Below are positions 10,773 to 36,663 of a DNA stretch of 64,000 nt, piece by piece. The position numbers and the translations under genes are program-made. The number at the start of each line of letters is the position of its first letter. Position 1 is the stretch's first letter. The notes under the pieces are model-generated. The model was given only the letters and a program-made list of their open reading frames with translations. It had not been told where the DNA came from and did no database searches. This DNA comes from an uncultured bacterium (GTDB taxonomy: Bacteria > Desulfobacterota_D > UBA1144 > Nemesobacterales > UBA2774): contig CAVPJU010000010.1 in the NCBI GenBank assembly GCA_963705505.1, positions 802,017-866,016 on the forward strand, read 5' to 3'.

Positions 10773-10803
10773 CACTAAATGAGATCGCAAGAGAAGACAC
10801 AAT

Positions 10804-13170: not shown

Positions 13171-13269
13171 GACAATTGAATCTCGGGGATATTCTCCCTT
13201 CGTAACGTATTTTCTTCAGCGATAAATACACTTATCCGTAAATTTTTTCTTAATTCCGCGGCTCGTCAT

Positions 13270-14496: not shown

Positions 14497-14512
14497 AACG
14501 ACGTTATCGTAG

Positions 14513-15895: not shown

Positions 15896-15957
15896 TTAAA
15901 ACGATTCGTTTCTGAACCCCTCGCAGCCGTCGGCACCCGGCTCGAACTGACCGTCTT

Positions 15958-17047
15958 CTACGATTTTGTATTTTCGGTCCTTGCCATCGTTTGCCTGTCC
16001 AAACAGTCCTTCAGCGCAAGTTCCGAAATATACCCCATATCGATCAGAATCTGCCCGACTCTTGCCGCCTTGATTTTTTTGACATTGTAATGCCTCTTCC
16101 AGTTGATCGACCGTGATCACGTTGGCGGCGAGCATTATTTCACCCAGCAAGTAATCATTTTTATTGTTTCTGAACGCCCAATTGGCGCTTGAATTCACGA
16201 ATACCTGCAAGTTCAGAAAGTCCTTCAATTTTTGTTCGGTAATATAACCCTTTTCAATCAGAATCTCCCCGACTTTCCCGCCCCATTTCTCCTGATGCTT
16301 AAGCGCTTCCTCAAGCTGCCCTTCGTTAATAACCCCGGATTCCAGTATGACCTGTCCTATCAGCTTATCTATACGCTTTTCCTTGCTGTCCCAATGGAGT
16401 GTGAACGTATACCATATAGAAGCAAAAATAAGCTTTAAATCGAGCCAGAAGCTCTGATTATAGATATAAATCAAATCATAGCGGAGCTTGTTCCTGGGAT
16501 GAGTATTATAATGTCCATGGACCTGGGCAATCCCGGTTAAGCCCGGCTTGACACGGAGCCTGTGATCAAAACCCGGGATCATTTTCCTGAACTCATTAAC
16601 CAATTCCGGCCGTTCGGCTCTGGGGCCGACGAAGCTCATGTCGCCCATAAGGATATTGAATAGTTGAGGAAGTTCGTCGAGCTTCGTTTTTCTGAGGAAT
16701 TTGCCGACTCTCGTGATCCTGTAATCCTTCTTATAAGCCCAGACAGGACCCGTATTGAGCTCCGCATTCTTGATCATGGAACGAAACTTGTAAATCTTAA
16801 ACCTTTTCCCGTTCACACCCAATCTTGTCTGAGAGAAAACTATGGGAACTCCGTCTTCCAGATAAATAGCTACAGCGACCAAAATCCAAACAGGCAAAGA
16901 AACTATGATACCTATAAGGGAAAACAAAACGTCGAAGGGCCTCTTTAAAATTGGCTCTCTTGTAGGGTAGGAATTATAATCCGTCAGCGAATACCTTCCG
17001 CCCAACTTGTTTATGCCGTTGCCGTAGCTTTTGAACATCTTTTCCAA
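15958..17047 (-). CDS. Monotopic priming phosphoglycosyl transferase fused to two MshEN-like domains (one frameshift near 16060-16080)
   Basis: KRPFD...YKFRSM...LRKTKLDELPQLFNILMGDMSFVGPRAERP...KPGLTGIAQV, then LIGQVILESGVINEGQLEEALKHQ-EKWGG-KVGEILIEKGYITEQKLKDFLNLQ. A second pair is completed by removing one base: ...VGQILIDMGYISELALKDCLDRQ...stop 15958. Confidence 0.88.
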
Positions 17048-17525: not shown

Positions 17526-18443
17526 ATGAACCATATCACAAAGAAAGTAAAGAATTACCCGGAGAAAACTGACAAAAAACCCAATATGGGTAATCCCGAG
17601 CGGGACAATGTCGGTTTTTCGAAAATAGAACCCTTTGCAGTACGCGAGCCCAGCGTAGGGGTTTCATTAAGACTTAGAGAGCTCCTGGAATATCACGAGC
17701 TTATTTATTTCCTTGTTTGGCGGGACCTTAAAGTACGGTACAAGCAAACCGCACTGGGTGTGGCCTGGGTAGCTATTCAACCGTTAATGACTATGATTGT
17801 GTTTACCATATTTTTCGGGAATCTCGCAAAAGTCCCTTCCGACGGACTGCCCTACCCTGTTTTTAGCTTTACGGCCCTATTGCCGTGGCAGCTCTTTGCT
17901 AACGCCTTAAACACCTCAAGCAACAGCCTTGTCAATAACCGCGACTTAATAACTAAACTCTATTTCCCCCGGTTAATTATTCCGTTGGCGTCGATAATAG
18001 CGGGATTTGTAGATTTTTGTATCGCATTCCTGGTGCTTATAGCCATGATAATCTATTATGGAATAGTCCCGACATCAGCCGTTTTTACGCTTCCCTTATT
18101 CATACTGTTGACAATCGCGACGTCAACAGCCGTAAGCCTTTGGCTTTCGGCGCTAAATGTAGAATATAGGGACGTACGTTACACAATTCCTTTCCTGACC
18201 CAATTCTGGCTCTTCCTCACGCCTATCGCCTATCCAAGCAATTTAGTGCCCGAGAAATGGCGTATCCTATACGGATTAAACCCGATGGCGGGCGTTGTCG
18301 AGGGTTTCAGGTGGGCTTTACTCGGAAAAACAAACGTTAGCTGGACCATAATTACGGTATCAGTGCTTATAGTTATAATTCTGCTTGTCGGCGGTTTGGT
18401 TTACTTCAGACGCATGGAAAGAACATTCGCGGATATAGTTTAA
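17526..18443 (+). CDS. wzm: Polysaccharide ABC transporter permease (Wzm)
   Basis: WRDLKVRYKQTALG..W..IQPL, LITKLYFPRLIIP, YRDVRY, FLTPIAYP, LNPMAG, ERTFADIV. Confidence 0.93.
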   Translation: MNHITKKVKNYPEKTDKKPNMGNPERDNVGFSKIEPFAVREPSVGVSLRLRELLEYHELIYFLVWRDLKVRYKQTALGVAWVAIQPLMTMIVFTIFFGNLAKVPSDGLPYPVFSFTALLPWQLFANALNTSSNSLVNNRDLITKLYFPRLIIPLASIIAGFVDFCIAFLVLIAMIIYYGIVPTSAVFTLPLFILLTIATSTAVSLWLSALNVEYRDVRYTIPFLTQFWLFLTPIAYPSNLVPEKWRILYGLNPMAGVVEGFRWALLGKTNVSWTIITVSVLIVIILLVGGLVYFRRMERTFADIV

Positions 18444-18444
18444 T

Positions 18445-19809
18445 ATGAACGGAATCGCAATAAAAGTCAGAGATATAGGAAAAGAATACAGGATAGGGGA
18501 GAGAAATGAATTCAGGACTATCCGGGACAGTATTTCAACCTTCGCCACAAAAATTTTCAAAAGACTAATTTCCGGTATTGACGGAAAATCCGTAAGGAAA
18601 AATAATTCCGCGGGTATCGGAGCTCCGCCTTCCGGTGGAAATTATCAATCCGACGTGTCGCAGATCCCGGGTACAACTGACAAGATAAATGATGAAAGAA
18701 CCGATAATTACATATGGTCACTCAGGAAGGTGTCTTTCGATGTCCGAAACGGGGAAATCGTCGGAATAATCGGCCGCAATGGCGCGGGAAAGAGCACGCT
18801 GCTGAAAATTATAGCGGGTATAACCGAACCTACGGAAGGAAGGATAGATATATACGGCAGAATCGCTTCGCTGCTTGAAGTCGGAACAGGATTTCACCTC
18901 GAGCTAACGGGGAGAGAAAATATCTATTTAAACGGGGCGCTGCTTGGAATGAAAAAACGGGAAATAGACCGTAAATTCGATGAGATAGTAGAGTTCTCGG
19001 AAGTTCATCAGTTTATCGACACGCCCGTTAAATTTTACTCCTCGGGCATGCGGGTGCGTCTGGGTTTCTCCGTGGCAGCACACCTCGAGCCCGAGATTCT
19101 GCTAATTGACGAAGCTCTTGCGGTAGGAGACGCAGCGTTCCAGAAAAAGTGTTTGGGCAAGCTGAACAATGTAGCTACCTCGGAAGGAAGGACCGTTATA
19201 TTCGTCAGCCACGACATGGCGGCCATCCTGTCATTATGCCAGAGATCTATTCTATTGGACAGCGGACGAATGATCGCCGAAGGCACCACTCATGAAGTAG
19301 TACAGCAGTACATGCAATCAATGAGTTCAACCTATGAAATCCCGCTTGACCAGAGAATGGATCGGACGGGAGACGGCAGTATCCTCGTTACATCACTTCA
19401 AATAGAGAATTCCGAGGGCAGAATACCTATTACACCGAGCTGTAAACTAAAAATCAAAATCGGTTATCGAAGCGAAAACCAAGTTCGCTTCCCTCAGTTC
19501 GTAGTTAATATTAAAGACTTTAGAACACACACGACTATACTCCGCCTGGATAGCGAAATGCTAAATGGTCTGCCTGAAACTCTTCCTTCCGCGGGAAGTG
19601 TGTCGTGCGTGACTGACAAAATATACCTGTCACCGGGACGATGCTACGTGGATGTCGGTATCAGAAAAGGGAAATCAACCGCCGATTACATTGAACATGC
19701 GGGATACTTCGATATCGAGACAGAAGACCTATACGGATCCGGAAAGATACCGTCACGTGACCAGGCTATATACCTCCTAAAATACAGATGGCTGGTTGAA
19801 AATGTTTAA
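18445..19809 (+). CDS. wzt: Polysaccharide ABC transporter ATPase with C-terminal Wzt_C domain
   Basis: GIIGRNGAGKSTLLK, LTGRENIYLNG, PVKFYSSGMRVRLGF, DEALAVGD. Confidence 0.94.
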   Translation: MNGIAIKVRDIGKEYRIGERNEFRTIRDSISTFATKIFKRLISGIDGKSVRKNNSAGIGAPPSGGNYQSDVSQIPGTTDKINDERTDNYIWSLRKVSFDVRNGEIVGIIGRNGAGKSTLLKIIAGITEPTEGRIDIYGRIASLLEVGTGFHLELTGRENIYLNGALLGMKKREIDRKFDEIVEFSEVHQFIDTPVKFYSSGMRVRLGFSVAAHLEPEILLIDEALAVGDAAFQKKCLGKLNNVATSEGRTVIFVSHDMAAILSLCQRSILLDSGRMIAEGTTHEVVQQYMQSMSSTYEIPLDQRMDRTGDGSILVTSLQIENSEGRIPITPSCKLKIKIGYRSENQVRFPQFVVNIKDFRTHTTILRLDSEMLNGLPETLPSAGSVSCVTDKIYLSPGRCYVDVGIRKGKSTADYIEHAGYFDIETEDLYGSGKIPSRDQAIYLLKYRWLVENV

Positions 19810-19964
19810 ATGATACCATTTAACAAGCGATTGATTGACGTTAACTAGTTGCAACCATTAAAATAAGTCTAAACATACGAGGTGAATTTAATAAAGGGTA
19901 TTTACACACTTTTTAAATTATTATAGATTTGCTTTAGCCAAATCAAAAAGTGAGGCATAAGAAT

Positions 19965-20708
19965 ATGAAGCGTGATCAGGTGTTTATTGAACAAAAGGGA
20001 AACATCAATGATTTTGAGTTCAATGACCAGGTGGTGGAAGTCTTCGATGATATGGTAAACCGGAGCGTTCCATTCTATTCGGAGCAGCAAAGGATGATAA
20101 ATGAAATCGGGAAAGTTTTTTCAACCAGCGGCACAAATATATATGATCTAGGGTGCGCTACAGCTACCACTCTCATTAATCTTTGTCAAGACTCCGACCC
20201 GTCGATCCGCCTGATAGGATTTGACAATTCCAAGCCAATGATTGAGAGGGCTCAACAGAAAATATCAGAGCATGGATATGAGAATCGAATCGAAGTGCGT
20301 TATGGTGACTTCAATGGAGATCTCGACTCTATCGATTTGAATAACGCCAGTCTGGTATTGATGTGCTGGACTCTGCAATTTGTGCGTCCTTTAAGAAGAG
20401 ACAAACTCATTAAAAAAATTTACGATTCACTCAGTAAAGGCGGTGCGTTGCTGATTACTGAAAAAATACTCACAAACCACTCACTCCTAAATCGCTATTT
20501 TATAAAATATTATTATGATTATAAGACGCGAAAAGGATATTCAACAGAAGAAATTGTAAATAAGAGGGAGGCACTGGAAAACATTTTGGTCCCGTATAGA
20601 GTTGAAGAAAATTTCGAATTGTTGAGGCGGAATGGATTCGAAACCGTAGATACTTTTTTTCAATGGTACAATTTTGCCGGATTTATTTGCATTAAAGACC
20701 CGGGTTAG
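19965..20708 (+). CDS. cmoA: Carboxy-S-adenosylmethionine synthase-like protein (CmoA family)
   Basis: DFEFNDQVVEVFDDMVNRSVPFY, YDLGC, DNSKPM, WTLQFVRP..R, YSTEEIVNKREALENILVP, FFQWYNF. Start ATG 19965 after GAGG. Confidence 0.82.
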   Translation: MKRDQVFIEQKGNINDFEFNDQVVEVFDDMVNRSVPFYSEQQRMINEIGKVFSTSGTNIYDLGCATATTLINLCQDSDPSIRLIGFDNSKPMIERAQQKISEHGYENRIEVRYGDFNGDLDSIDLNNASLVLMCWTLQFVRPLRRDKLIKKIYDSLSKGGALLITEKILTNHSLLNRYFIKYYYDYKTRKGYSTEEIVNKREALENILVPYRVEENFELLRRNGFETVDTFFQWYNFAGFICIKDPG

Positions 20709-20728
20709 TCATTTAAATCTACTTACCA

Positions 20729-21487
20729 ATGATTAACGAAAAACCTTTTAATTTGATTACTGGCAATATGAACATTCATACATTAATAAAGCGAATAGCC
20801 ATATATATAAGTGGTTTGATTTGTTACAGATGGGATAGATACTACAAATTACCGAGAAGTCTAAATCCTATAAGTCATAAATTCGGCTTTGACAGAGGAT
20901 TGCCCATCGACCGCTATTATACTGAAAAATTTATACGCGCAAACGCCAATGATATACATGGCCGTGTTCTTGAAATTGGAGACGACTACTACACTAAAAA
21001 GTTCGGAACCGATCTTATTACCAAAAGCGATGTATTGCATGTCGTCGATGGTAATCCTCAGGCAACGATCATCGCTGATTTGACTAAGGCTGATAATATT
21101 CCTTCCGATACCTTTGACTGTATAATATTCACTCAAACCCTTCAAATGATTTATGATACGCACTCCGCTTTAAAAAACCTCCACCGAATATTGAAACCCG
21201 GGGGCGTATTGCTAGTTACTACTCACGGAATATGCAAAGTGGGGAGATGGGAGGGTGAGGACGACTGGGGTAAATACTGGCATTTCACTTCTCAAGCAAT
21301 AAAAAAGATGTTTGATACACACTTCATGACCGGGAACTATAAAATCGAGGTATATGGAAACGTACTCTCCGCGATCTCTTATCTGCACGGACTCTCGTCA
21401 AATGAACTAACAATAAATGAGTTAGATTATTCGGATCGTGAGTATGAGGTTTTAATTGCCGTAAGAGCAGTAAAACCTGCCGTATAA
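20729..21487 (+). CDS. Class I SAM-dependent methyltransferase of a type common in polysaccharide loci
   Basis: FGFDRGLPIDRYY.EKF, GRVLEIGDD.YT, FDCIIFTQTLQMIYD, LHRILKPGGVLLVT. Confidence 0.85.
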   Translation: MINEKPFNLITGNMNIHTLIKRIAIYISGLICYRWDRYYKLPRSLNPISHKFGFDRGLPIDRYYTEKFIRANANDIHGRVLEIGDDYYTKKFGTDLITKSDVLHVVDGNPQATIIADLTKADNIPSDTFDCIIFTQTLQMIYDTHSALKNLHRILKPGGVLLVTTHGICKVGRWEGEDDWGKYWHFTSQAIKKMFDTHFMTGNYKIEVYGNVLSAISYLHGLSSNELTINELDYSDREYEVLIAVRAVKPAV

Positions 21488-21802
21488 ATCAATATTAATA
21501 ATACGATCGAGTAAAAAATGTTAAAACTAAATAACAAGCATCCGATCACACTTCAAAGGAATCATGATAAATTTTCAAAGAAAACTTTTAGAAAGAAATA
21601 AATCGCTATTTCGGAGTTAGATTCAGGAATATCTAGACTAATCTCGCTCCAATGCGATTCTTTAAAGGAGTAATAGCAGATAATCCCAAATAATATAGAG
21701 TTGTAGCCGCTCCGGCCCGAACTATGTAATGTTCGATACTGTGTTATTTTTTTAGCTGGTGTAATATTTATATTCAGACTGTTAGGAGACATGTAAATAC
21801 AA

Positions 21803-22615
21803 ATGAGGCGGAATCCGGATTTTTCCATACCCATTTTAATGTATCATCAGGTAAGCGACGATCCTCATCCAAATTTTCTGAAATTTACTGTGACGACAAA
21901 GGGTTTTGAATCACAGATGAAGACCCTGAAACTCCTCGGCTATAAACCCATAGATTTCAGCCAACTAGCAAGATATAAGGAAGGAAAGGACCGACTGCCA
22001 AAAAGACCCGTCATAATCACATTTGACGACGGGTTTCAGGAAGCGGTGGATAATGCTGTTCCAATATTAAATTCTTGCGGATTCACTGCGGTGTTTTATA
22101 TCACAACCGATTATATCGGGAAAAAAAGCGGCTGGATGATTCCTGAAACATCAATCGAATTCCAGGTTATAGATTGGCCCACCGTAATTCATTTGGATTC
22201 ACGCGGATATGAAGTCGGAGCTCACAGTATGACGCATCCTCATATGGATGCCATATCGTTGGAAGCCTGCTCAAAAGAGCTCCGCGGATCGAAAGAGGCT
22301 ATTGAAGAAGTTTTGGGCCACGAAGTACGGCACATGGCATACCCTCACGGCTCGTTTAACGACGATGTTTTGAAATTAGCGCACGAAACAGGCTATCAAA
22401 CGTCCTGTTCATGCGAAATCGCCATTGCGCATTCCGGGAATGACCTTCTGGCCCTGCCGAGAGTCAATATCGAGGCCAGTGACTCCTTGATCGATTTTAT
22501 ATTCAAGCTGCACAAGGCCAGAACACCTGACGAAATTATGCTGATCACGATGAATAGCGTGAAAAGCAAGATCCCGGGAAGATTGAGGAGATTTATTAAA
22601 AAATTTGTTAATTGA
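21803..22615 (+). CDS. Polysaccharide deacetylase (CE4/NodB)
   Basis: PILMYHQV, ITFDDGF, GAHSMTHP, AYPHG, LPR. Confidence 0.92.
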   Translation: MRRNPDFSIPILMYHQVSDDPHPNFLKFTVTTKGFESQMKTLKLLGYKPIDFSQLARYKEGKDRLPKRPVIITFDDGFQEAVDNAVPILNSCGFTAVFYITTDYIGKKSGWMIPETSIEFQVIDWPTVIHLDSRGYEVGAHSMTHPHMDAISLEACSKELRGSKEAIEEVLGHEVRHMAYPHGSFNDDVLKLAHETGYQTSCSCEIAIAHSGNDLLALPRVNIEASDSLIDFIFKLHKARTPDEIMLITMNSVKSKIPGRLRRFIKKFVN

Positions 22616-23652
22616 GGCCGTACGGTAACGACAATATTATTATGATCAAAGTGAGTGTAATAATACCCACATACCAAAGAAAACAATCCGTATTACGTCT
22701 TCTCGATGCACTTAGTTCGCAAACTTTTCCGTCAAACGAATTCGAGGTCATAATTTCGATCGACGGTTCGACAGACGGTACGAAGGAAGCGGTCGATAAT
22801 TACAAAACTCCTTTCGAACTAGGGTCTATTTGGGAAAGTAACGCAGGTAAATCGTCTGCATGCAATAAGGGAATTAAAGACGCCCGGGGAGAATTGTTAA
22901 TCATATTGGATGACGACATGGAGCCGTCTCCCGGACTAGTGCAAGCTCATTATACCGCACATCAGGGCCATACGAAAACCGGTGTAATAGGGGCCGCCCC
23001 TATAATAGTAGAAGAAAATTCACCGCTTGTTGTCCGTTATATCGCCGATAAGTTCAATTCTCATATAAAAAAAATATCAGAACCGGGTTTTAACCTAAGG
23101 ATTTGGGACTTTTACGGCGGGAATTTCTCTATAAGAAGAAAGCTCATGCTGGACGTCGGTCTATTTGACGAAAACTTTAAAGTTTACGGGTACGAGGACG
23201 TCGAGCTCGTAAACCGGCTGCTAAAGGCGGGTGTAAAAATAATATTCAGCCCGGATGCTTTATGCGTTCAGCATTATGAGGATGATCTCAAAGGCCAGGG
23301 GTACAAAACAATCAATTCGGGGAACAATGCTGTTCAACTAGTCAGTTCTCAACCGGAGACATTTACTGAACTCAAGCTCACCGAATATAACTTAACGGGA
23401 TGGAAGTGGCGCTCACTTCGTCTAACTTTAATATGGTTCAGTATCTTGATCCCCGTTACTACGGACATAGTAATCTCTTTAATTAACCTGTTTGAGAAAT
23501 CAAACCCGAAGATGCATAGGAGGCTTTATTCCTTAGCCATGGATTACTTCTTTTGGCTCGGGGTGTGGACAGCTTTGAGACGTGATAAAAACAAGCAACT
23601 CCGCTCCAAAATAAAATCCTTCAAGAAACCCCAAAAATGTCCAACACCGTAG
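22612..23652 (+). CDS. Glycosyltransferase family 2
   Basis: VSVIIPTY, DGSTDGT, LDDD, GLFDENF..YGYED. True start probably ATG 22642. Confidence 0.9.
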   Translation: MRPYGNDNIIMIKVSVIIPTYQRKQSVLRLLDALSSQTFPSNEFEVIISIDGSTDGTKEAVDNYKTPFELGSIWESNAGKSSACNKGIKDARGELLIILDDDMEPSPGLVQAHYTAHQGHTKTGVIGAAPIIVEENSPLVVRYIADKFNSHIKKISEPGFNLRIWDFYGGNFSIRRKLMLDVGLFDENFKVYGYEDVELVNRLLKAGVKIIFSPDALCVQHYEDDLKGQGYKTINSGNNAVQLVSSQPETFTELKLTEYNLTGWKWRSLRLTLIWFSILIPVTTDIVISLINLFEKSNPKMHRRLYSLAMDYFFWLGVWTALRRDKNKQLRSKIKSFKKPQKCPTP

Positions 23653-24773
23653 TTTACTATATAGACAGCAATAATTTCGGCGGCGCGGAACAGGTGTTAC
23701 TCAACCTCGTGAGTAAACTCGACCGAAATTCGTGGCGCCCGATCCTCGCATATCACCAGAGCCCCGGCATTTCCTCGTTTGTAGCAGCCGTAGAAAACCT
23801 GGACGTGGATACCATTTCTATGCCTGAGATTCGGAGCTATAAAGATATCAGGAACATTCTACAATTCGCAAAGAAACTGAAAACCATACGTCCCGCTATC
23901 TTTCATGCAAATCTAAGCTGGCCGCTTTCATGTTCTTATGGCATTATCGCCGCATACCTGGCCGGGGTTAAGACTATTTTAGCCACCCAGCACCTCTATT
24001 CGGATATGAACTCTCGACGGAGCCAACTAGAACAAAAGCTAATATCCTATTTCGTGGACAACTATATTGCGGTATCATTCGATGTAGCCAGACAGCTCAA
24101 AGAAATAATCACTTCCGAAAATAAAGTAAAAGTTGTGCACAACGGAATCATATTGGGAAATTACAGTCACGTAGCAAATAACACACCCGATAGCGACGTT
24201 TACAGCTCCGTGAAGATGAATAGAAATAATTTTCCGATCGTGCTTACCGTAGCACGTCTCGACAAGCAAAAGGGGCACACCTATTTACTTCAAGCCGCGA
24301 GTGATATCCCGGGGACGCTTTTTGTATTCGCCGGGGACGGTCCCGAGAGGGCGAATCTCGAAAATGAGGCGCGTGAGCTGAGTTTGACGGACAGAGTCAT
24401 TTTTTTAGGAAATAGGAACGACATCCCTGCATTGCTGCGCGGATGCGATTTGTTTGTACTCCCGTCTCTCTTCGAGGGATTGCCCCTTTCCATTATTGAA
24501 GCCATGGCGGCAGGCAAACCTGTCATAGCCTCCGATATCAGGGGAGTAGACGAACTGGTAATAAATGGCAAAACAGGATACCTGGCGCCCCCGGGAGACC
24601 CTACTGCTTTAGCGGCCGCGATAAAAACCATCGTGTCGAATCCCCAATTGTCTCAAAAAATCGCATCAGCGGGAAAAACCATGGTATTCAGTGAATTCTC
24701 CGCCGATCAAATGTTAAAAGGCATAACTGAAATATACAATGACAATCTATCCCGCAGAGGATTAATAAATTAA
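23637..24773 (+). CDS. Glycosyltransferase family 4
   Basis: GGAE, VARLDKQKGH, PSLFEGLPLSIIEAMAAGKPV. Confidence 0.92.
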   Translation: MSNTVVYYIDSNNFGGAEQVLLNLVSKLDRNSWRPILAYHQSPGISSFVAAVENLDVDTISMPEIRSYKDIRNILQFAKKLKTIRPAIFHANLSWPLSCSYGIIAAYLAGVKTILATQHLYSDMNSRRSQLEQKLISYFVDNYIAVSFDVARQLKEIITSENKVKVVHNGIILGNYSHVANNTPDSDVYSSVKMNRNNFPIVLTVARLDKQKGHTYLLQAASDIPGTLFVFAGDGPERANLENEARELSLTDRVIFLGNRNDIPALLRGCDLFVLPSLFEGLPLSIIEAMAAGKPVIASDIRGVDELVINGKTGYLAPPGDPTALAAAIKTIVSNPQLSQKIASAGKTMVFSEFSADQMLKGITEIYNDNLSRRGLIN

Positions 24774-24913
24774 GCAAATGGGAAATCACAGAATTACCGA
24801 AGAGCCCATTAATATCATCATAAGCTCGGGCTCACCCTGCTTCGTCGATCGATTGGAGCAGGGCAAATCAAACCTTTTTCTTACAGTTCTTCGTATGAAA
24901 TACGAATAAGGGA

Positions 24914-26167
24914 TTGGCGATAACAATGCGCATCCTCTTTATCTCAAGCTACTTCCCCGACGACATACGTACAAAGGCTCACGGCGTCTATAAGCGGATG
25001 GGGATGTTTATAGAGGCTATAAAAGAAATAGCCTCACTGGATATGCTCTTTTATACACGTCAGGATACGCATTACTCGCCCATACAGACGTCCGAGACGG
25101 AACGTTCGTTAAGCGAACACTGGAAAACGGATATCAGGCTGTCACTCTCGCCCATGGCGGAATACAGGAATCGAACCAAATCCGAAAAACTGACGTCCTT
25201 CGGAAAAGGCATCTTCAGTATTTTCAATCAGCATGGTTACTACGAGCTTAGCGGAGCTGAGCAGGTGCGGGCCCTTGAAGAGTGCCTCGACAGAAGGCCT
25301 GATGCGATCTTCGCACACCGGCTGCCCTCGATGTGCCCTCTGCTGCTCACGAGGAAACCCCTCCCTCCGATTTTTTTCGACTTCGACGATATTGAGCATA
25401 TAGTACAGTTAAGACACATCAAACAACTAAAAAGACTCCGGTCAAAGCTCTTATATCTGCTCATTCCTGCTCTGCGTTCGGGTGAAATGGATGCAGTAAG
25501 ATTAGCCACAGAGACATACGTTTGCTCCGAAAAAGACCGCGCATACCTGGAAAATAAGTTCAACCAGTCCCGTGTAATTACAGTCCCGAATACGGTATCG
25601 ATTCCGGCGTTACAGCCCCCCGCAAATGAAAAGACTCTACTTTTCATCGGTTCTTATTATACGGCCAATCTGCACGCCATAGATTTTCTCGTTAAAAAGA
25701 TCTGGCCTTACGTACATCGGGAAGTCCCGGACGCAAAGCTGATTATTGCCGGAATACCCGCTGATAAGCTCGACATAGATGTCTCCGGAGCACCGGATAT
25801 AGAAATCACCGGATTCGTGGACGACCTGGACGGGCTCTACGGAAGATCCCGCATTATTACCACTCCAATATTCGTCGGAGGCGGCACGCGGATAAAGATC
25901 ATCGAAGCCGCGGCTTACGGGAAGCCGGTAGTATCTAGCACGATAGGAATGGAAGGGATCGATTTGTCCCCCGGAACAGAAATTCTGATACATGACAATC
26001 CGAAAGAATTTGCAGAAGAGTGTGTAAAATTGCTTCGAGACCCCGAATTGTGTAAGGAAATAGGATCGGCGGCAAGGTCAAAAGCCAGACTCCTCTATGA
26101 CAGCAACTCAGTCCTCAAGTTAGTCAGAGACCGTATAATGCATAACATGAAAATATCTGCATCATAA
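24914..26167 (+). CDS. Glycosyltransferase family 4-like (GT-B)
   Basis: TGFVDDL, GGGTRIKIIEAAAYGKPVVSSTIGMEGI. Confidence 0.88.
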   Translation: MAITMRILFISSYFPDDIRTKAHGVYKRMGMFIEAIKEIASLDMLFYTRQDTHYSPIQTSETERSLSEHWKTDIRLSLSPMAEYRNRTKSEKLTSFGKGIFSIFNQHGYYELSGAEQVRALEECLDRRPDAIFAHRLPSMCPLLLTRKPLPPIFFDFDDIEHIVQLRHIKQLKRLRSKLLYLLIPALRSGEMDAVRLATETYVCSEKDRAYLENKFNQSRVITVPNTVSIPALQPPANEKTLLFIGSYYTANLHAIDFLVKKIWPYVHREVPDAKLIIAGIPADKLDIDVSGAPDIEITGFVDDLDGLYGRSRIITTPIFVGGGTRIKIIEAAAYGKPVVSSTIGMEGIDLSPGTEILIHDNPKEFAEECVKLLRDPELCKEIGSAARSKARLLYDSNSVLKLVRDRIMHNMKISAS

Positions 26168-26193
26168 AACATCATTCCGATGTATAATTTTAA

Positions 26194-27118
26194 ATGATGT
26201 CGCAAGTAAGCGTTATTATTCCAACTTATAACAGAGTGAAATTACTCAATAATTCAGTCGCGAGTGTGCTTTCCCAGACTTATCGGGATTTTGAGCTGCT
26301 GGTGATAGACGACTGTTCCACAGACAATACTTCCGATTTTCTTTCCAATATCGCTGACAAAAGAGTACGCTGCATAAAAAATACCTCGAATAAAGGAATT
26401 ACCGCGACAAGGAATATTGCTCTGTCCAATGCAAACGGGAAATACATCGCATTTCTCGACGACGATGATGAATGGATGCCGGACAAGCTGGAAAAACAGA
26501 TAAATTTAATGGAAAACAGTTCTAAGGGTCTCGGCTGCATATATACCGGATGCAATCTCGTCGACGCGGAAGATAATAGATTCAATCAAACAACTGTACC
26601 ACACTATAGAATAAGGATTTTGAATGAATTACTCTTGGAGAATTTCATTATCACTTCCTCGACTCTTATAAAGGCAGACTGTTTCGAAACAGTCGGGATG
26701 TTCGATGAAAGCATGCCGTTCGCCGAGGATTATGACATGTGGATACGAATAGCTCAGGAGTTCGAATTCGATTTCGTCAGATCACCTTTGGTAAATTACC
26801 GCATTCATCGAAATTCGATCAGTTTCAACAATAATGCGATAATAATCGGATTAGAGCGATTACTCACAAAACACGAAAAGCTATTCCTGAAAAACAAAAA
26901 GGCTTATAGTAATCACCTGCTTAGAATCGGTGTCGCATATTGCTATACTGGGAATACCAGAGAAGGCAGGAAAGCGCTTATGAAGTGCATTGGAATATTA
27001 TAAATTCGACAAAAGAGTTTATTATAATCTCCTGCTGACAATCCTTGGTGCGGACATCTTCAAAAAGCTAAAGGAGTTGAAAAAGCAGTATTTCCCTATA
27101 CGTATAAAAACCGGATAA
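26194..27118 (+). CDS. Glycosyltransferase family 2 (one frameshift near 26992)
   Basis: VSVIIPTYNR, DDCSTD, YIAFLDDDDEW.PDKLEKQ, EDYDMWIR. Removing one G extends the frame to ...YYNLLLTILGADIFKKLK...TG-stop 27118. Confidence 0.88.
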
Positions 27119-27179
27119 GCGGGAGGCAACGAAGTGCGGATTCTATAAAATACAGTCCGCGACTTAGGATCAGAGCGCA

Positions 27180-28595
27180 ATGCAGAGATTAAACTTCGCC
27201 GATATAAATATCCAACACATTCTGATATTCTCCGCAATAATACTCGGTGCGATCCTGGGTATTTATATAGGATATAACGGGGCTTCCAAGCTAATAATAG
27301 GAGGGTTATTAGGGGCTATATTTTTTGTTCTGAGCATTATGAGGCCGTGGATAGCAGTAGCGGCCTTCTTCGCATTAATACCTCTCGAAAACCTGTTCGT
27401 GCTGCAGGGCAGTTTGACGGCGACGCTATCCAAGCTGATGGGCGCTTATTTGATCTTTCTTGTGATCATTACAGGGTCACTAAAATATATACACGAAGTT
27501 TTTATAAATAAAAAGGTTTTGGTGCTGGTACTATACGGCGCCCTGGGAATAATTTCGGTCGCCGTATCCAAGCACAAAGATTACGGCATCCCGCTCTTAA
27601 TAACTCTATGGCTGTATATATTCCTATATTTCGTTTTTATAATCATGATAAGGGACATTAAGACGTTATATTATGCAACCTGGGCCTTGCTGGCGGGAGG
27701 AATAATTTCAATAATCAGCCCATACTTTTTCGGATTTGGGAGTGTCGGGGGCTACGAATTAAAACGCTATGGAGGGCTATGGGGAGACCAGAACGAGTTC
27801 GCAGCTCTGCTGCTCGTATTGATTCCACTTTCCATCATGAACTTCTTTATGGACCAGAAGTTAATTTACAAAGTAATCTCGGCAATTACTTCACTCATAC
27901 TTCTGACTGGTCTAATACTAACGTATTCGAGGGGTGGATTCATATCTCTGTTCCTCATGCTTGTACTAGCAATGTTTAAAATAGTAAGTGGGAAAAACAG
28001 GACTAAGATTCTTGCAATATCCGTTCCCTGTATCATCGTAGCTTTTATAATTTTTTATTACGCCTTTGCCGATCAGTTCCTTGCCAGAATGGAAACGCTG
28101 AGTGTATTGTCAAGCAGTGAATCGGCACAAACGGAAGGCTCGCTGAAGCAGAGATATTTCTACTACTTCCAATTAGCCCCGAAACTCTTTATGCAGCACC
28201 CTGTTTTCGGAGTCGGATTTAGGGAGTTCGTGTTTAGCAACCCTTACGGGCAGGTAACACATAATACTTATTTAGAGGTATTGGTAGGAATGGGTGTAAT
28301 AGGATTCATACCTTTCGTAGCCATATTATTTCTTTCATGGAAAGACCTGAGAAGCGCTCAGAAGTTCAATAACAACAATCCGTTTGTCCATTCTTATGCA
28401 GTTGCGCTTGAGATAGGATTCCTGGGTTATCTTTTCGCCAGTATGTTCCTTACGCTGGACTTAAATAAGGTGCTTTGGATGTCGATCGCTCTTACATCAG
28501 TAGTTCTTAATTTAAGCAGGATTTATAGTGGGACTCAGACTACGAATAAAGTCACTAATCGCAACTACAAGACATTAGGAGTAACATACTACTAG
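27180..28595 (+). CDS. O-antigen ligase / Wzy-like polymerase
   Basis: Multi-TM; RYGGLWGDQNEFA, TYSRGG, HPVFGVG, THNTYLEVLVGMGVIG. Confidence 0.85.
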   Translation: MQRLNFADINIQHILIFSAIILGAILGIYIGYNGASKLIIGGLLGAIFFVLSIMRPWIAVAAFFALIPLENLFVLQGSLTATLSKLMGAYLIFLVIITGSLKYIHEVFINKKVLVLVLYGALGIISVAVSKHKDYGIPLLITLWLYIFLYFVFIIMIRDIKTLYYATWALLAGGIISIISPYFFGFGSVGGYELKRYGGLWGDQNEFAALLLVLIPLSIMNFFMDQKLIYKVISAITSLILLTGLILTYSRGGFISLFLMLVLAMFKIVSGKNRTKILAISVPCIIVAFIIFYYAFADQFLARMETLSVLSSSESAQTEGSLKQRYFYYFQLAPKLFMQHPVFGVGFREFVFSNPYGQVTHNTYLEVLVGMGVIGFIPFVAILFLSWKDLRSAQKFNNNNPFVHSYAVALEIGFLGYLFASMFLTLDLNKVLWMSIALTSVVLNLSRIYSGTQTTNKVTNRNYKTLGVTYY

Positions 28596-28725
28596 ACGGT
28601 CGGGAAGACATAGCAGCGGCATTCCTCGCTCAAGAGTGTGAATATCGGTCTAAAGCAAACACATTATCCGATGAGAATTCAAATTATCCGGCCAGACTGA
28701 TAAGTACACATCGGGGAAAAAACAT

Positions 28726-29910
28726 ATGACAATATATATAATCGCGATTTTCATCTTCCTTATAATAGCGCCGTATGTTATCTATCCGGCGGTTATGCTG
28801 GCACTCGGATACGTACTGACGGGTGTTAATCAAGAAAGGTCCGGAGAGACCCCTTATGTAACTATAATAATTCCGACATATAACGAGGAAAAAGTAATAG
28901 CGGAGAGGTTCAAGAATCTGGAGGCCCTGTCGTATCCCATAGACTTGCTTCAAATCATAGTCATCGACAGCGGCTCAAAGGATAAAACTACAGAGCTGGC
29001 CAGGGAATTGGCAAAATCATCGAGCCTCGATTTCCATGTACTCAAACAGGACGAAAGGAAAGGGAAAGCCAATGCCGTCAATTTCGCCATTCAGCACGCA
29101 AAGGGTGAAATAATAATAGTGAGTGATGCGAATGCTCTATTCGAAAAAAACGGCATCGAAGAAATAGTAAAACCATTCGGGAACGCGGAGGTAGGGGGAG
29201 CCGGAGGCAGATTTATAACTTTGGGAAATAACACGGTCGGGAAAGGCGAGGAGTTATATTGGTCCATAGAGGATTACATAAGGCAGACGGAAAGCCGTAT
29301 ATACTCGCTGACTAATTTCAGCGGAGAGTTCAATGCTTTTAGAAAGGGTCTGGGGCTCGTTCTGGATGAAAAAGCTTTGTCGGAAGACCTCGACCTGACC
29401 ATACAAATAATAAAAATGGGGTATAAGGTGATTTATGTGCCGAGCGCCAGAGTTTACGAGCCCAGCGTCGAAAACACGGAGGATTTAATAAAACAGAAAA
29501 AGAGAAGAGCGATTGGAGCTTTACAAGTAGTGTTTAAACACATGGATATGATAGCAAAGCCGAAATTACTCGCATTCAACGTCTTGTTCTTCTTTCACCG
29601 TACCCTGCGTCTTTTTACACCTATACTGACGCTGATATTGCTGATACCCCTTTGCTATCTATTCTTCGCATCCGGCTACCGTTACAAATACGAGGCGCTC
29701 GGAATAACGGCTGCTGTAGTTGTTGTAGCGAGCCTCATAACCAGTCTTGTTTTTAAGAAAAGTCTAATACGGAATCTCTATTACTTTCTAGTACTGCAGT
29801 ATTCATACGTACTGGCTTGGATCGAGTTCATCACCGGCAAATATAAAGTCACGTGGGAGAAAACCGAAAGCAGCCGTGATCTGAAAAACGTGATGGGCAG
29901 GATGAAATGA
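28726..29910 (+). CDS. Membrane GT2 (cellulose-synthase-like, IcaA/PgaC-like fold)
   Basis: N- and C-terminal TMs; IIPTYNEE, DSGSKD, GKANAVN, SDAN, SED, QKKRR in place of QxxRW. Confidence 0.85.
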   Translation: MTIYIIAIFIFLIIAPYVIYPAVMLALGYVLTGVNQERSGETPYVTIIIPTYNEEKVIAERFKNLEALSYPIDLLQIIVIDSGSKDKTTELARELAKSSSLDFHVLKQDERKGKANAVNFAIQHAKGEIIIVSDANALFEKNGIEEIVKPFGNAEVGGAGGRFITLGNNTVGKGEELYWSIEDYIRQTESRIYSLTNFSGEFNAFRKGLGLVLDEKALSEDLDLTIQIIKMGYKVIYVPSARVYEPSVENTEDLIKQKKRRAIGALQVVFKHMDMIAKPKLLAFNVLFFFHRTLRLFTPILTLILLIPLCYLFFASGYRYKYEALGITAAVVVVASLITSLVFKKSLIRNLYYFLVLQYSYVLAWIEFITGKYKVTWEKTESSRDLKNVMGRMK

Positions 29911-29932
29911 GTTTATTAGTACAACATTATAT

Positions 29933-30871
29933 ATGAGCGTACTCGTCGCTATTCCTACATTATTTACCAGAAACGCGCTTAAAAATGTGCTTGAGAGCCT
30001 GGAGAATCAATCGGTCGAGCCTTATAAAATATTGTTAATCACCCCCAAGGGCAATATAGGCGGGGATTGGGAAAAATTTCTGGCTCAGTTTAAAAGGGTC
30101 GAATTAGCATACCTTGAGAACTATACGAGAGAAGAGGTGCTGAATAAGACAAAAAACAGCATGGTCGATGCCAGAAATTACGCGCTTTCCCGAGCCAAGA
30201 GCGAGCTCGAGGATGAGGATATCATTTTATTCCTGGACGACGACTGCATACTCGATAAGAACTGGATACAGGTGGCTGTCCAGAACCTGGAAACGGACGG
30301 TATCGGGGGATTTACGGGGAAGGTAATAAACCACAGAGATGAAGGACCCATGAGAAAGGCTGAAGTATTCGGGTTAGGTCTGATACAATATTTATTCGGC
30401 AGCGCCAAGACAGGAACAATTACGGACTGCGGGTTCGTATCAACGGCTTTCGACGGGCCGTCCAGGACCGAGGTGGATCACCTGCCGGGGGTTACAATGG
30501 CCTATAAGGCCGGATCCGTCAGGGATCTCAAATTCGATGAAAACTACAAGGGTAACTGTTACAGGGAAGAGACTGATTTTTCTCACAGGGTAAAAGAGAG
30601 AGCAAAGCTGATCTACGACCCGGGAGCCAAAGCCGACCACATGCTGGGTACTACGAGGAGAGACAAATTCTCCAACTATTATAAGAGCTACAACCATATT
30701 TACTTCTGGAAAAAGAATTTCAAATTTACCTTTTGTTTTTTCCTGAGGGAGGCACTGGAAGCTCTTCTCCTTATCGCGGCAGCCGCGGTCTCCTTTAAGA
30801 CGGATTACCTCTACGGCATAAAAGGGAAAATCGACTCTTACCGCCGGTATCTTTTATCCGGAAACGATTGA
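29933..30871 (+). CDS. Glycosyltransferase family 2
   Basis: ARNYAL, ILFLDDDC, FDENY.GNCYREETDFS.R. Confidence 0.85.
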   Translation: MSVLVAIPTLFTRNALKNVLESLENQSVEPYKILLITPKGNIGGDWEKFLAQFKRVELAYLENYTREEVLNKTKNSMVDARNYALSRAKSELEDEDIILFLDDDCILDKNWIQVAVQNLETDGIGGFTGKVINHRDEGPMRKAEVFGLGLIQYLFGSAKTGTITDCGFVSTAFDGPSRTEVDHLPGVTMAYKAGSVRDLKFDENYKGNCYREETDFSHRVKERAKLIYDPGAKADHMLGTTRRDKFSNYYKSYNHIYFWKKNFKFTFCFFLREALEALLLIAAAAVSFKTDYLYGIKGKIDSYRRYLLSGND

Positions 30872-30887
30872 TCTTAGACAGAACGAT

Positions 30888-32012
30888 ATGAAAATATTGC
30901 ATGTGTATACCGGCGGGGGCGAAATATACGGAGCCGAGAGGGTTATATTTAATCTGGCCATTGAGCAGATAAAGCGTGGGTTCGATACAAAGGTAGTTTA
31001 CTTTAAACGTTCCGGACGGAACTCGTTCCTGGAGTCGTTACACGAACATGGAATACCGGTATATGTAATCCCCTCAACAGGCAAATTGGATATAGGTGCT
31101 TTCTTGGCTTTAAGACGAATCTGCCTTGACTCACCCCCTCAAATACTACACTCGCACGGATATAAGGGATATATATTTTCAGCCATTTTAAAAAGAATCT
31201 CTAATTCGTTCATCATAGTATCGACCAAACATATATCGACAGACTCATCGTCGAGGATACAGATTTATGATTATCTAGGAGACACTTCCCTTAAATTCTT
31301 CGACTGGATTATAGCCGTCTCCGATTTCACAAAAGAAAGTCTGGTGGAAAGGCATATACCGGCCGATAAAATCGAGGTAATCCACAACGGAGTGGACATA
31401 CCGATAAACGGCCGGGAAGCCGGAGACAGACTGCGGAGCGAACTCAAGCTCGGTCCAGATTCCAAGCTCATAGGGTTCATTGGCCGTCTTACGCCTCAGA
31501 AAGGCATAAGCTATCTGCTCGAAGCAGCTCGTATAGTCTCTGCAGAAACTAAAGACATATATTTCGTATTGATCGGCGACGGCGAGTTGAGAGAGGATAC
31601 CGAATCCTTCATTTCCTCAAACAATCTTGAGGAACGTGTTTTGACGCTGGGATGGAGAAAAGATGCTACGGAGCTCCTTCGGGACATCGATATTCTTCTA
31701 CTCCCGTCTCTTTTCGAGGGCACTCCGATGATAATGCTCGAATCCATGGCCCTGGGCGTTCCGGTAGTCGGAAGCGCCGTCGGCGGTATAAGTGAAGTTA
31801 TTGAGGACAGAGAGAGCGGGCTTTTGATAAAACCCTGCGACCCCGATGCTATCGTTTCATCGATACATGAATTGCTGGAAAACCGGGAGCTTGCGGAAAA
31901 GATTTCACGGAATTCGATCGAGGAAATAAAAACGCGCTATAGCTCGGAGCATATGACCGAGATGTACAACGAAACCTATACCCGGCTCTTATCCGGCGTG
32001 ACTGCAAAATGA
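30888..32012 (+). CDS. Glycosyltransferase family 4
   Basis: YGAER, IHNGVD, GRLTPQKG, PSLFEGTPMIMLESMALGVPV. Confidence 0.92.
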   Translation: MKILHVYTGGGEIYGAERVIFNLAIEQIKRGFDTKVVYFKRSGRNSFLESLHEHGIPVYVIPSTGKLDIGAFLALRRICLDSPPQILHSHGYKGYIFSAILKRISNSFIIVSTKHISTDSSSRIQIYDYLGDTSLKFFDWIIAVSDFTKESLVERHIPADKIEVIHNGVDIPINGREAGDRLRSELKLGPDSKLIGFIGRLTPQKGISYLLEAARIVSAETKDIYFVLIGDGELREDTESFISSNNLEERVLTLGWRKDATELLRDIDILLLPSLFEGTPMIMLESMALGVPVVGSAVGGISEVIEDRESGLLIKPCDPDAIVSSIHELLENRELAEKISRNSIEEIKTRYSSEHMTEMYNETYTRLLSGVTAK

Positions 32013-32959
32013 GCGAAATGCTACTCCCTTTTGTATCATTCATTATCCCTACTAAAAATGAGGAATCCAACATAGAGAGATGCCTCGAGAGTATTTTAGC
32101 GCTTGACTATCCGAAGGACAGGTACGAGATAATCGTCGCCGACGGGCATTCAGAAGACAGGACCTGTGAGATCGCGCAAAGTCTCGGGGCCAAGGTCATT
32201 AGTAACGATAAGATCATTCAGTCTGCGGCGCGGAATATCGGAGCAATAAACGCGGCGGGAAACCTTGTCGCGTTTATCGATGCGGACATAATCCTCGGCC
32301 CCCAATGGCTGAAGAACGCTGTTGTACATTTTGGTGATCATCAGGTAGCCGCTGTCGGAAACTTCCCTGGGATCGCAGACGATGCGGACTGGATCGAGAA
32401 AGTTTGGTTTTTTCATATAAAGAGCAAATATGCCGGGAAAAACATAACCTATGTCGACTGGCTCGCTTCCGCTAACATTATCTTTGATAAAGAGGCATTC
32501 ATGAAGATAGGCGGGTTTGACGAGTCGATAAGGTATGCGGAGGACGTGGACATAGGTCTCAGAGCGACGATAGGCGGATACAGAATCATACTCGACCCAG
32601 GCCTCGAGTCCACACATCTCGATTATGAGAAGTCCCTTACAGGCTTCGCTAAAAGGCAGCTAGCCGGGGGGCGTGTTATCCTTCAGCTACTGAAGAAAAG
32701 CGGCTTCAAGAAGAACTGGAGAATAGCCTTTTTTATAAGCGTTTATCTGCTTTTCATTATCACATTCATACTGGGGATATTTTTCAGCATAAAGCTGTCG
32801 GCGGTTTCACTGATTTGCATGGTTTTAATGGCGGCGCTACTCGCCTTTCAGCGCTGTCATAATGCGGGATCGTATGTCTATTTTCTCCCGCTTTCACTAC
32901 TGCTTTTTTTGTCAGGTATCGTAAGGGCCGTCGCATTCGTTCTGCCGGCTAAGAAATAA
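32009..32959 (+). CDS. Glycosyltransferase family 2 with C-terminal TM helices
   Basis: SFIIPTKNEE, ARNIG, AFIDAD, GGFDESIRYAEDVD. Confidence 0.9.
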   Translation: MSEMLLPFVSFIIPTKNEESNIERCLESILALDYPKDRYEIIVADGHSEDRTCEIAQSLGAKVISNDKIIQSAARNIGAINAAGNLVAFIDADIILGPQWLKNAVVHFGDHQVAAVGNFPGIADDADWIEKVWFFHIKSKYAGKNITYVDWLASANIIFDKEAFMKIGGFDESIRYAEDVDIGLRATIGGYRIILDPGLESTHLDYEKSLTGFAKRQLAGGRVILQLLKKSGFKKNWRIAFFISVYLLFIITFILGIFFSIKLSAVSLICMVLMAALLAFQRCHNAGSYVYFLPLSLLLFLSGIVRAVAFVLPAKK

Positions 32960-35032: not shown

Positions 35033-35111
35033 GTGAATGCCTCCTTTCGTCGGCTAACCACCCTTGTAAGGGAAGCATTACATTCGACCCTGCTTGAGAA
35101 GCAGGCAGGTT

Positions 35112-35156
35112 AGAAAAATCTAGGAAAGATAATGATACTTAAAATTTATCTTCCTA
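35112..35156 (-). terminator. Intrinsic terminator overlapping the riboswitch P1 3' strand
   Basis: Minus strand: TAGGAAGATAA ... TTATCTTTCCTA followed by GATTTTTCT. Confidence 0.55.
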
Positions 35157-35250: not shown

Positions 35251-35289
35251 CACGCCTTTTTTAACTGTTTCTACATGTTGTCATTATAT

Positions 35290-35305
35290 TGCAATATTTA
35301 TACCA
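35290..35305 (-). promoter_or_regulatory. Putative sigma54 (-24/-12) promoter upstream of the riboswitch
   Basis: Minus strand TGGTATAAATATTGCA (GG-N10-GC); implied start near 35279, about 30 nt before the aptamer. Confidence 0.6.
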
Positions 35306-36064: not shown

Positions 36065-36065
36065 T

Positions 36066-36639: not shown

Positions 36640-36663
36640 ATTTCAGGGCTTACAATAAAACAA

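Follow-up and report, generated by a model that had tools for sequence, protein, structure and literature searches.

A CmoA-family gene paired with a methyltransferase-fold gene in a glycan export operon: possible carboxymethylation of an exported glycan

The stretch of DNA analysed here (hereafter the window: 64,000 nucleotides of contig CAVPJU010000010.1, positions 802,017 to 866,016, from an uncultured bacterium of the phylum Desulfobacterota_D) raises the question of why a gene of the CmoA family, whose Escherichia coli member acts with CmoB in tRNA modification, should lie in an operon for the assembly and export of a glycan. The gene, cmoA, is followed by a second one, MT2. Genes for an ABC-2 permease and an ABC ATPase (wzm and wzt) precede the pair, and a deacetylase gene plus eight glycosyltransferase or Wzy_C-like genes come after it. 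The original prediction had proposed that carboxy-S-adenosyl-L-methionine (carboxy-SAM) is diverted here from tRNA to the glycan and used by the neighbouring enzyme. The layout on which it was built was reproduced: open reading frame (ORF) 20729-21487 encodes a class I methyltransferase and starts 20 nt after the stop codon of cmoA, and a Pfam scan of the locus placed the pair between wzt and the deacetylase and glycosyltransferase genes. The proposal itself gained comparative support from the missing CmoB, the pairing of the two genes, a distinct subtype of MT2 and the fusions of MT2 domains to glycan enzymes, all described below; the part that concerned Wzt gained none. On the strength of these sequence comparisons, we consider it rather likely that carboxy-SAM is made here and serves MT2, a member of the subtype called MT2A, in carboxymethylation of the exported glycan.

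The CmoA-family ORF starts with ATG and encodes 247 residues. All the motifs by which it had been recognised are present in it (FDDMVNRSVPFY, DLGCATA, MCWTLQF and NKREALEN), and it matches TIGR00740, the CmoA equivalog model, at 233.7 bits over profile positions 1-239, above the cut-off of 193.3; its score for the stricter enterobacterial model NF011995 stays below the cut-off (163.5 vs 285). The protein can be aligned over its whole length with two solved CmoA/YecO chains, 1im8 (E 2.8e-46) and 4gek (E 1.3e-43). In the available part of their paper, Byrne et al. (PMC3663124) name eleven cofactor-contact residues of E. coli CmoA, of which Arg199 binds the carboxylate of the cofactor. Nine of the eleven are identical in the window protein when it is aligned to 4gek, including Arg199, which corresponds to Arg201 (KREALEN, aligned to KRSMLEN of 4gek); among Tyr39, Asp62, Gly64, Ser66, Asp89, Asn90, Asp117, Asn132, Phe137 and Glu164, eight of the ten are identical. 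The genome also encodes a chorismate mutase/prephenate dehydratase ORF, so that the co-substrate prephenate should be available. Judged by these features, the window protein is a probable carboxy-SAM synthase.

CmoB, the partner of CmoA in E. coli, was found neither in this genome nor in its relatives. In the genome (2.88 Mb, 93.6% complete), only the window gene exceeds the CmoA cut-off, and the earlier remark that the window lacks cmoB can be extended to the whole genome, where the best match to the CmoB model TIGR00452 has 22.1 bits vs a cut-off of 275 and corresponds to a UbiE-type gene (window 42506-43183). The search for a separate cmoA/cmoB pair thus left the window gene as the sole cmoA, with no cmoB elsewhere, and close homologues of it recur in glycan loci. 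A CmoB match at E<=1e-15 was found in none of 120 genomes of the phylum, and none of five genomes from other phyla in which close relatives of the window CmoA occur has CmoB either (best match 46.3 bits). CmoA itself is sporadic in the phylum, as an accessory gene would be: it exceeds the cut-off in 6 of the 120 genomes, two more having weaker matches (166.8 and 140.3 bits). A contrast sample of 151 genomes, from the phylum of one other carrier of the clade, contained CmoA above the cut-off in 55. From its 30 best-scoring cmoA loci 92 ORFs were extracted, and CmoB accounted for 26 of the 29 scanned ORFs that flank these proteobacterial cmoA genes (427-505 bits).

The phylogeny of CmoA separates these two situations. 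A tree of 99 sequences unites the 30 proteobacterial CmoAs in a single clade (support 0.999) and puts the window CmoA in a separate, 59-leaf clade (support 0.984) without any CmoB-linked member. The sequence CWTLQF had been taken as a hint of divergence; the difference is real, and it proved to be a signature of the clade and not decay. The window clade has Cys-Trp at this point, whereas the CmoB-linked proteins have Asn in 30/30 and Phe next to it in 29/30; Cys is found at the Asn132 position in 53 of the 66 non-proteobacterial, non-phage CmoAs. The carboxylate-binding position is Arg in all 30 proteobacterial proteins and in 58 of these 66.

The partner, MT2, is a class I methyltransferase of 252 residues (Methyltransf_23, 39.7 bits; Methyltransf_11, 35.8 bits) for which no NCBIfam model scored above its cut-off. 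Its identity as a CmoB was rejected, no TIGR00452 match being found at E<=0.001, and a sequence search against solved structures gave a best match of only E 7e-4. An AlphaFold2 (AF2) model built from a 106-sequence alignment (mean predicted local distance difference test, pLDDT, 92.5) shows the class I methyltransferase fold; an earlier model from 36 close sequences had been discarded (pLDDT 57.4). In this fold, the loop after strand 5 borders the transfer site. In the AF2 model, the stretch 167-187, which carries the signature, is the loop that connects strand 5 (155-166) to the following helix (188-198), and after strand 5 the window protein carries His166, Lys170, Arg173 and Gln189 (signature HKRWKQ). 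In the copies adjacent to CmoA the loop reads T-[ST]-H-G-[IT]-S-K-x-x-R-[RW]-x-G-x-D-x-W-G-E-Y-W-x-x-T-x-Q, with Arg173 and Gln189 each in 52/52. In the unpaired copies of the phylum, the loop is of reduced length, His166 gives way to Pro, Ser, Gly or Ala, Lys170 is replaced by Gln or Asn (Arg in three divergent copies), Arg173 is absent and Gln189 is replaced by Leu, Ser, Val, Tyr or Ala.

A tree of 251 MT2 domain sequences places all signature-bearing copies, the window MT2 among them, in one 87-leaf clade (type A, support 0.976), which comprises 52 CmoA-paired copies, 6 beside a divergent CmoA, 6 unpaired ones, 19 edge cases and 4 database representatives. Arg173 is present in all 87 leaves (85 found by the signature filter, the window protein with HKRWKQ and that of L107 with PKRREQ), and Lys or Arg is conserved at position 170. 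The clade excludes the phylum's 16 unpaired copies, without exception, and 146 of the 150 family representatives. In type B, the other subtype, the loop has a shorter or different build, Pro, Ser, Gly or Ala stands in place of His166, Gln, Asn or another residue occupies position 170, and Gln189 is missing. The separate clade of the window CmoA and the basic residues that CmoA-less relatives of MT2 lack both support the idea that carboxy-SAM has been put to another use here.

The link between type A and CmoA was followed in metagenome contigs, which were scanned with an alignment of 36 MT2 relatives, the best 80 of 497 encoding stretches being kept. In 48 of these, a CmoA of the window clade lies within 600 nt of MT2 (in 47 immediately upstream of it on the same strand, in 1 on its downstream side), and six more have a divergent CmoA-family gene nearby (five within 381 nt on the same strand, one at 1,444 nt on the opposite strand); six have no cmoA with at least 1 kb upstream readable, and 20 are too near a contig end to tell. 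The six divergent genes match TIGR00740 over the full profile at 138-169 bits, at or above the scores of the phage CmoAs examined here (119 and 142 bits). In all, a CmoA-family gene adjoins 58 of the 64 type A loci with readable flanks, glycan loci among them, and the recurrence of the neighbourhood that the original prediction had called for was thus found. Type B MT2 lies next to CmoA in 0/27 cases when two second copies are set aside (L092, 2.5 kb off; L112, 113 nt). These two loci each have one MT2 of either type, with the cmoA-like gene directly 3' of the type A copy, and in L112 the type B copy stands 113 nt beyond the cmoA-like gene. Similarly, the same-genus genome G077 has one type A MT2 adjoining cmoA and two type B copies elsewhere. 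Of the 120 genomes of the phylum, 14 have homologues of MT2 (E<=1e-20), and in four of these MT2 lies directly 3' of cmoA (the genome of the window, G077, G013 and G019). Among 301 genomes sampled from a second phylum, 11 MT2 homologues were found, all of type B and none beside cmoA; a GT2 match adjoins 10 of the 11 and a deacetylase match 7.

The CmoA clade of the window is also found with other partners. In 17 genome loci located through the CmoA sequence (149 ORFs extracted, 48 scanned with Pfam and 12 with NCBIfam), MT2 was not found in any, and another methyltransferase-fold gene, from families of the sugar type, lies directly beside cmoA in 10, which adds to the case for a sugar acceptor. 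Six of these neighbours are TIGR04325-like (64.7-78 bits, below the 80-bit cut-off), two are NanM-like putative sugar O-methyltransferases (91.5 and 93.8 bits vs a cut-off of 44), one is an FkbM protein and one is LmtA/PEMT-like; in four of the remaining seven loci, the neighbours were not resolved by crude ORF calling. An FkbM gene lies beside cmoA in four genomes of the phylum (G012, G020, G102 and G077).

The divergent CmoA-family genes constitute a second type of CmoA, found in L092 (5001-6376), L112 (5001-6345), L127, L129, L130 and L132, in which the Arg is displaced by one position (K-T-R), likewise in G102. This type pairs with its own MT2A subclade (signature HKR[IVF]EQ) in L092, L112 and L129, and the pair lies twice inside wzm-wzt loci with strong Wzt_C domains. 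A further CmoA homologue forms the C-terminal part of a 596-residue frame in L141 (2578-4368), either as an N-terminal fusion or as an artefact of start choice in high-GC DNA.

The position of the pair in the operon is itself conserved. In the relatives G105 and G103, the orthologous operon has the order wzt, MT2, deacetylase, GT2 (glycosyltransferase family 2), with no cmoA beside MT2. Wzt, deacetylase and GT2 of the relatives are 47-66% identical to those of the window, which identifies the operon as the same, and orthologues of GT2a, 49-63% identical, follow the deacetylase. MT2 is fused to a GT2 domain in G078, G102 and G095, and G099-G101 encode an extra GT2-MT2 fusion; none of them has cmoA beside MT2, and eight MT2-bearing genomes of the phylum are without any CmoA match. 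The window cassette occupies the exact slot that a type B MT2 fills in the relatives, between wzt and the deacetylase gene. The contrast of two MT2 subtypes, A and B, at one conserved operon position is new here.

Within the locus, cmoA and MT2 have the lowest GC content (39.2 and 38.7%, vs 39.8-48.5% for the other locus genes listed), AT-rich spacers (155 and 315 nt) lie on either side of the pair although the rest of the operon is tightly packed, and nucleotide similarity to the nearest cassettes stops at the gene borders. Taken together, these features fit lateral acquisition at the slot of a resident methyltransferase, and the cmoA-MT2A cassette was probably acquired in this way. We infer that it displaced the resident methyltransferase gene; the spacers, when searched, showed no trace of a type B MT2 or FkbM gene. 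The nearest relatives of the cassette have three genes, cmoA-MT2A-FkbM, and lie outside glycan loci (L056 8596-11071, in G077, and L068 2352-4828). The FkbM protein encoded by the third gene might, by analogy, methylate the new carboxylate, as CmoM does for uridine 5-oxyacetic acid (cmo5U).

A case for a glycan as acceptor comes from fusions and neighbours of MT2. A full-library search returned 1,177 MT2 representatives at E<=1e-30, many of them long multidomain proteins, and 26 of the 150 listed, picked from the long and the top-scoring ones, were scanned for domains. The partner of the MT2 domain is GT2 in 12 of these 26, a polysaccharide deacetylase in 7, GT4 in 2, FkbM in 2, a pyruvyl transferase in 1 and CBM_4_9 in 1. 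In three of the proteins, GT2, MT2 and deacetylase domains succeed one another just as the corresponding genes do in the operons of the relatives. In one protein (P0242, 853 residues), an APH-type kinase stands between two MT2-like domains, a layout that we take to resemble that of the chain terminator WbdD. Around the pair itself, 22 of the 80 metagenome loci were annotated (85 of 135 extracted ORFs scanned), and glycan or envelope families were found within four ORFs in 16 of the 22. The 16 include two further wzm-wzt loci, L092 and L112, each with a clear Wzt_C domain.

Several observations weigh against the carboxymethylation of a glycan by CmoA and MT2A, and the first concern the enzymes. 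In the window CmoA, Ser66 is replaced by Ala and Asn132 by Cys (Glu164 is kept), and the Cys that the clade has in place of Asn132 stands against Asn in all 30 CmoB-linked CmoAs. Replacement of these two residues would suit the alternative that the CmoA-like protein is a plain or inactive methyltransferase and MT2A uses SAM, the glycan being simply methylated at two positions; moreover, both proteins match generic methyltransferase Pfam models, and the type B relatives of MT2 evidently function without CmoA. Nevertheless, we regard ordinary methylation as distinctly improbable, because the protein scores above the CmoA equivalog cut-off and keeps Arg199 and Glu164, because the reviewed and characterised members of the family are carboxy-SAM synthases as far as the available entries tell, and because the 58/64 pairing would be left unexplained for two independent methyltransferases. 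In addition, the Asn132 position is Val or Ile in two phage CmoA homologues, those of S-CRM01 and Erwinia phage Y3, which served as stand-ins for phage S-B43 and are both uncharacterised; one of the two is encoded immediately 5' of a cytosine methyltransferase gene, as in the characterised phage system.

The clade-wide change from NF to CW, next to the methionine moiety of the cofactor, could also mean that CmoAs of the Cys/Trp type make another SAM derivative, with another donor or substituent, which the paired transferases would pass on. In its favour, Herbert et al. made carboxy-S-adenosyl-L-ethionine enzymatically (PMC7496830, in the part available). However, the carboxylate-binding Arg and every other cofactor contact are retained, and we give this explanation very little credence.

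Other points against carboxymethylation of the glycan concern MT2A and the counting of loci. The structural relatives of the MT2 model found with Foldseek in the PDB are generic, often SAM-bound class I methyltransferases (probability 1.00, template modelling score 0.41-0.50), so that acceptor, cofactor and N- versus O-transfer are not readable from the fold. The basic residues of the loop could just as well serve to bind an acceptor that is anionic, and cmoA is missing from the surroundings of six readable type A loci. The 80 metagenome loci were chosen for their likeness to the query and many are near-duplicates, so the pairing counts overstate independence; since type A is a single clade, the association of CmoA with the basic loop counts as one evolutionary event. 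The link between MT2A and CmoA is one association kept through much lateral spread, not many independent ones.

The last points concern the acceptor. In G077 the cmoA-MT2A-FkbM cassette lies outside glycan loci, by genes for an Mrr endonuclease and efflux proteins, and six of the 22 annotated metagenome loci have no glycan genes nearby. Both observations speak for a rival explanation, in which carboxy-SAM is made and then used, by MT2A or an enzyme encoded elsewhere, on something other than the exported glycan (a lipid, small metabolite, protein or tRNA), the operon being a mere landing site of a mobile cassette. The second of the nearest cassettes, L068, has the same kind of position, the pair follows AMP-binding and lipid-A-acyltransferase-like genes in L057, L076 and L097, and the known users of carboxy-SAM act, in the literature available, on peptides, nucleotides and DNA. 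Set against these are the fusions of the MT2 domain to GT2 (12/26) and deacetylase (7/26), the presence of glycan enzymes next to MT2 in three phylum-level samples and the insertion of the window cassette exactly in the type B slot, and we consider a non-glycan acceptor unlikely. In the loci concerned, the lipid-A-acyltransferase-like gene is directly 5' of cmoA-MT2A in L057 (8882-12871), L076, L083 and L097, preceded in three of the four by an AMP-binding (adenylating) gene, which in L073 comes after MT2A. These neighbours point to a lipid or acyl context, or to the use of the carboxylate as a handle.

The sequence of events favoured here, carboxymethylation of the glycan by MT2A, would be as follows. 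CmoA would convert SAM and prephenate to carboxy-SAM. MT2A, as the descendant of a glycan methyltransferase that gained a basic loop, would bind the product through His166, Lys170 and Arg173 in the loop after strand 5 and move the carboxymethyl group onto a sugar of the lipid-linked glycan, which the neighbouring GT2 and deacetylase would assemble; the carboxymethylated product would then be exported by Wzm/Wzt. In this scheme we infer carboxy-SAM synthesis by the clade, the cofactor choice of MT2A, the acceptor atom and the glycan as acceptor. The constant company of the deacetylase invites the speculation, by analogy with NodB/NodS, that a hexosamine may accept the group on its freed amine.

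An extended version of the scheme, which we hold only tentatively and think rather doubtful, is that of a mobile charge-switch cassette for surface glycans. In pathways that depend on an ABC transporter, a terminal hexosamine, added by GT2 and de-N-acetylated by the neighbouring deacetylase, would be methylated by type B MT2 in the sister operons and carboxymethylated (on N or O) by MT2A here, which would give an anionic, glycine-like or glycolate-like end. Where FkbM, AsnB-like or AMP-binding genes accompany the pair, the carboxylate would be esterified or amidated, a further modification that can be likened to those of cmo5U by CmoM and of 5-carboxymethylcytosine (5cxmC) by CmoY. If true, the end group would be one that is listed in no glycan database. 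Asparagine-synthase-like amidotransferase genes occur near cmoA-MT2A in the glycan loci L117 (6438-8351), L140 (2518-4401) and L065 (1061-1332), and in Erwinia phage Y3 such a gene lies directly 3' of cmoA; amidation of the carboxymethyl group is a possibility.

One element of the original prediction gained no support, namely that the carboxymethyl group is a chain cap read by the C-terminal domain of Wzt. The window ATPase has a Wzt_C match at residues 306-426 (28.9 bits, slightly below the Pfam cut-off of 30.4), and its C-terminal part is scarcely more diverged from the CmoA-less relatives than its ATPase part (49-63% identity over residues 301-454, 64-73% over residues 1-300). The C-terminal parts of Wzt from the cmoA-MT2A loci L092 and L112 have no detectable likeness to that of the window.

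The genes around the pair are listed in the table. The spacer 5' of cmoA contains a sigma-70-like match at 19835-19864, the count of promoter-like matches in the region being equal to that of shuffled sequence.

Table. Features of the glycan locus around the cmoA-MT2A pair (window coordinates)
Feature	Position	Strand	Evidence
wzm-like ABC-2 permease	17526..18443	+	PF01061 ABC2_membrane, 76.8 bits
wzt-like ABC ATPase with C-terminal extension	18445..19809	+	ABC_tran, 81 bits
AT-rich spacer 5' of cmoA, 155 nt	19810..19964		28.4% GC
CmoA-family gene, probable carboxy-SAM synthase (glycan-type clade)	19965..20708	+	TIGR00740 match; 39.2% GC
MT2A, class I methyltransferase-fold protein, CmoA-linked subtype, proposed carboxymethyltransferase	20729..21487	+	Pfam; 38.7% GC
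AT-rich spacer 3' of MT2A, 315 nt	21488..21802		31.4% GC
Polysaccharide deacetylase (NodB/PgaB type)	21803..22615	+	PF01522, 96.8 bits
GT2a, GT2 glycosyltransferase, conserved partner of deacetylase and MT2	22612..23652	+	PF00535, 94.8 bits
Rest of locus: GT4, GT4, GT2, Wzy_C-like, GT2, GT2, GT4, GT2	23637..32959	+	Pfam

The same cluster contains, at 9771-17047 and 27180-28595, Wza-, Wzc- and initiating-transferase-like genes and two Wzy_C/O-antigen-ligase-like genes alongside the Wzm/Wzt exporter, so that parts of two export routes share one cluster. Also within the locus is the gene of a tetratricopeptide-repeat protein with a weak CBM_4_9 carbohydrate-binding match (13270-14496; 21.6 bits, below the cut-off). 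Beyond the glycan locus, the minus strand carries several ORFs of 216-544 residues without a Pfam match at E<=1e-10 (33070-40975) and the gene of a CBM96-domain protein (34229-35032). An ordinary block of ribosomal protein, rpoA, secY, tuf and fusA genes, with strongly negative GC skew, occupies 46000-64000 on the minus strand.

As far as the available parts of two publications tell (PMC10491745, PMC12783734), carboxy-SAM is known as a donor for tRNA, two peptide-derived natural products and phage DNA, and its known users are CmoB, TglF, the MccB domain of Bacillus and CmoX. Full-text searches, from which subscription journals were mostly missing, listed no publication that, judged by title and abstract, links CmoA or carboxy-SAM to a glycan. 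The present comparison suggests a decoration not yet described, in which a carboxymethyl group replaces a methyl group on a surface sugar chain. If the acceptor is indeed a glycan, it would be a new target class for carboxy-SAM and a new route to negative charge on a surface polysaccharide, and it would provide a carboxymethyltransferase family that could be used with CmoA for the enzymatic carboxymethylation of sugars. Subtypes A and B of MT2 offer a natural comparison, being homologous enzymes that occupy the same slot with and without CmoA and differ in a short basic loop.

Two glycan systems resemble the locus in layout. WbdD of E. coli O9a is a chain-terminating methyltransferase-kinase encoded after wzm-wzt; in both cases, a methyltransferase-fold gene lies directly 3' of wzt in an operon for an ABC-transporter-dependent glycan, although the window MT2 has no kinase domain and no sequence match to a solved WbdD chain. 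The Nod factor genes NodC, NodB and NodS, with NodIJ, likewise combine a GT2, a deacetylase and a methyltransferase with an ABC-2 exporter; this is an analogy only, as MT2 has no match to the NodS family.

The other comparisons are with systems that make carboxy-SAM. E. coli CmoA/CmoB (tRNA cmo5U34) shares with the window pair the fold and cofactor-binding residues of CmoA and a methyltransferase-fold gene directly 3' of it whose protein would use the carboxy-SAM. However, the partner here is of a different methyltransferase family, no CmoB was found in genome or phylum, the window CmoA belongs to a separate Cys/Trp clade and the context is glycan export instead of housekeeping. In the part of the source available, CmoB holds the carboxylate with Lys91, Tyr200 and Arg315, and TglE/TglF (3-thiaglutamate) and MccS with the MccB methyltransferase domain (Bacillus microcin C) are described as carboxy-SAM systems without CmoB (PMC10491745). 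Compared by these descriptions, they are like the window pair in having a CmoA homologue outside tRNA modification that works with a non-CmoB transferase, and unlike it in their acceptors, a peptide-bound thiol and cytidine, and in having no glycan genes. In Synechococcus phage S-B43, CmoA, CmoX and CmoY are involved in 5-carboxymethylcytosine, CmoX being another non-CmoB user of carboxy-SAM (PMC12783734, available part). That system differs from ours in its DNA acceptor and in a transferase that is a homologue of C5-cytosine methyltransferases, and the phage CmoAs that we examined are 27-35% identical to the window CmoA. The likeness lies in a CmoA that acts without CmoB and in the transferase itself: according to the same text, CmoX is set apart from ordinary cytosine methyltransferases by an Arg in contact with the carboxymethyl moiety of carboxy-SAM, and this gained Arg finds a parallel in the invariant Arg173 of MT2A.

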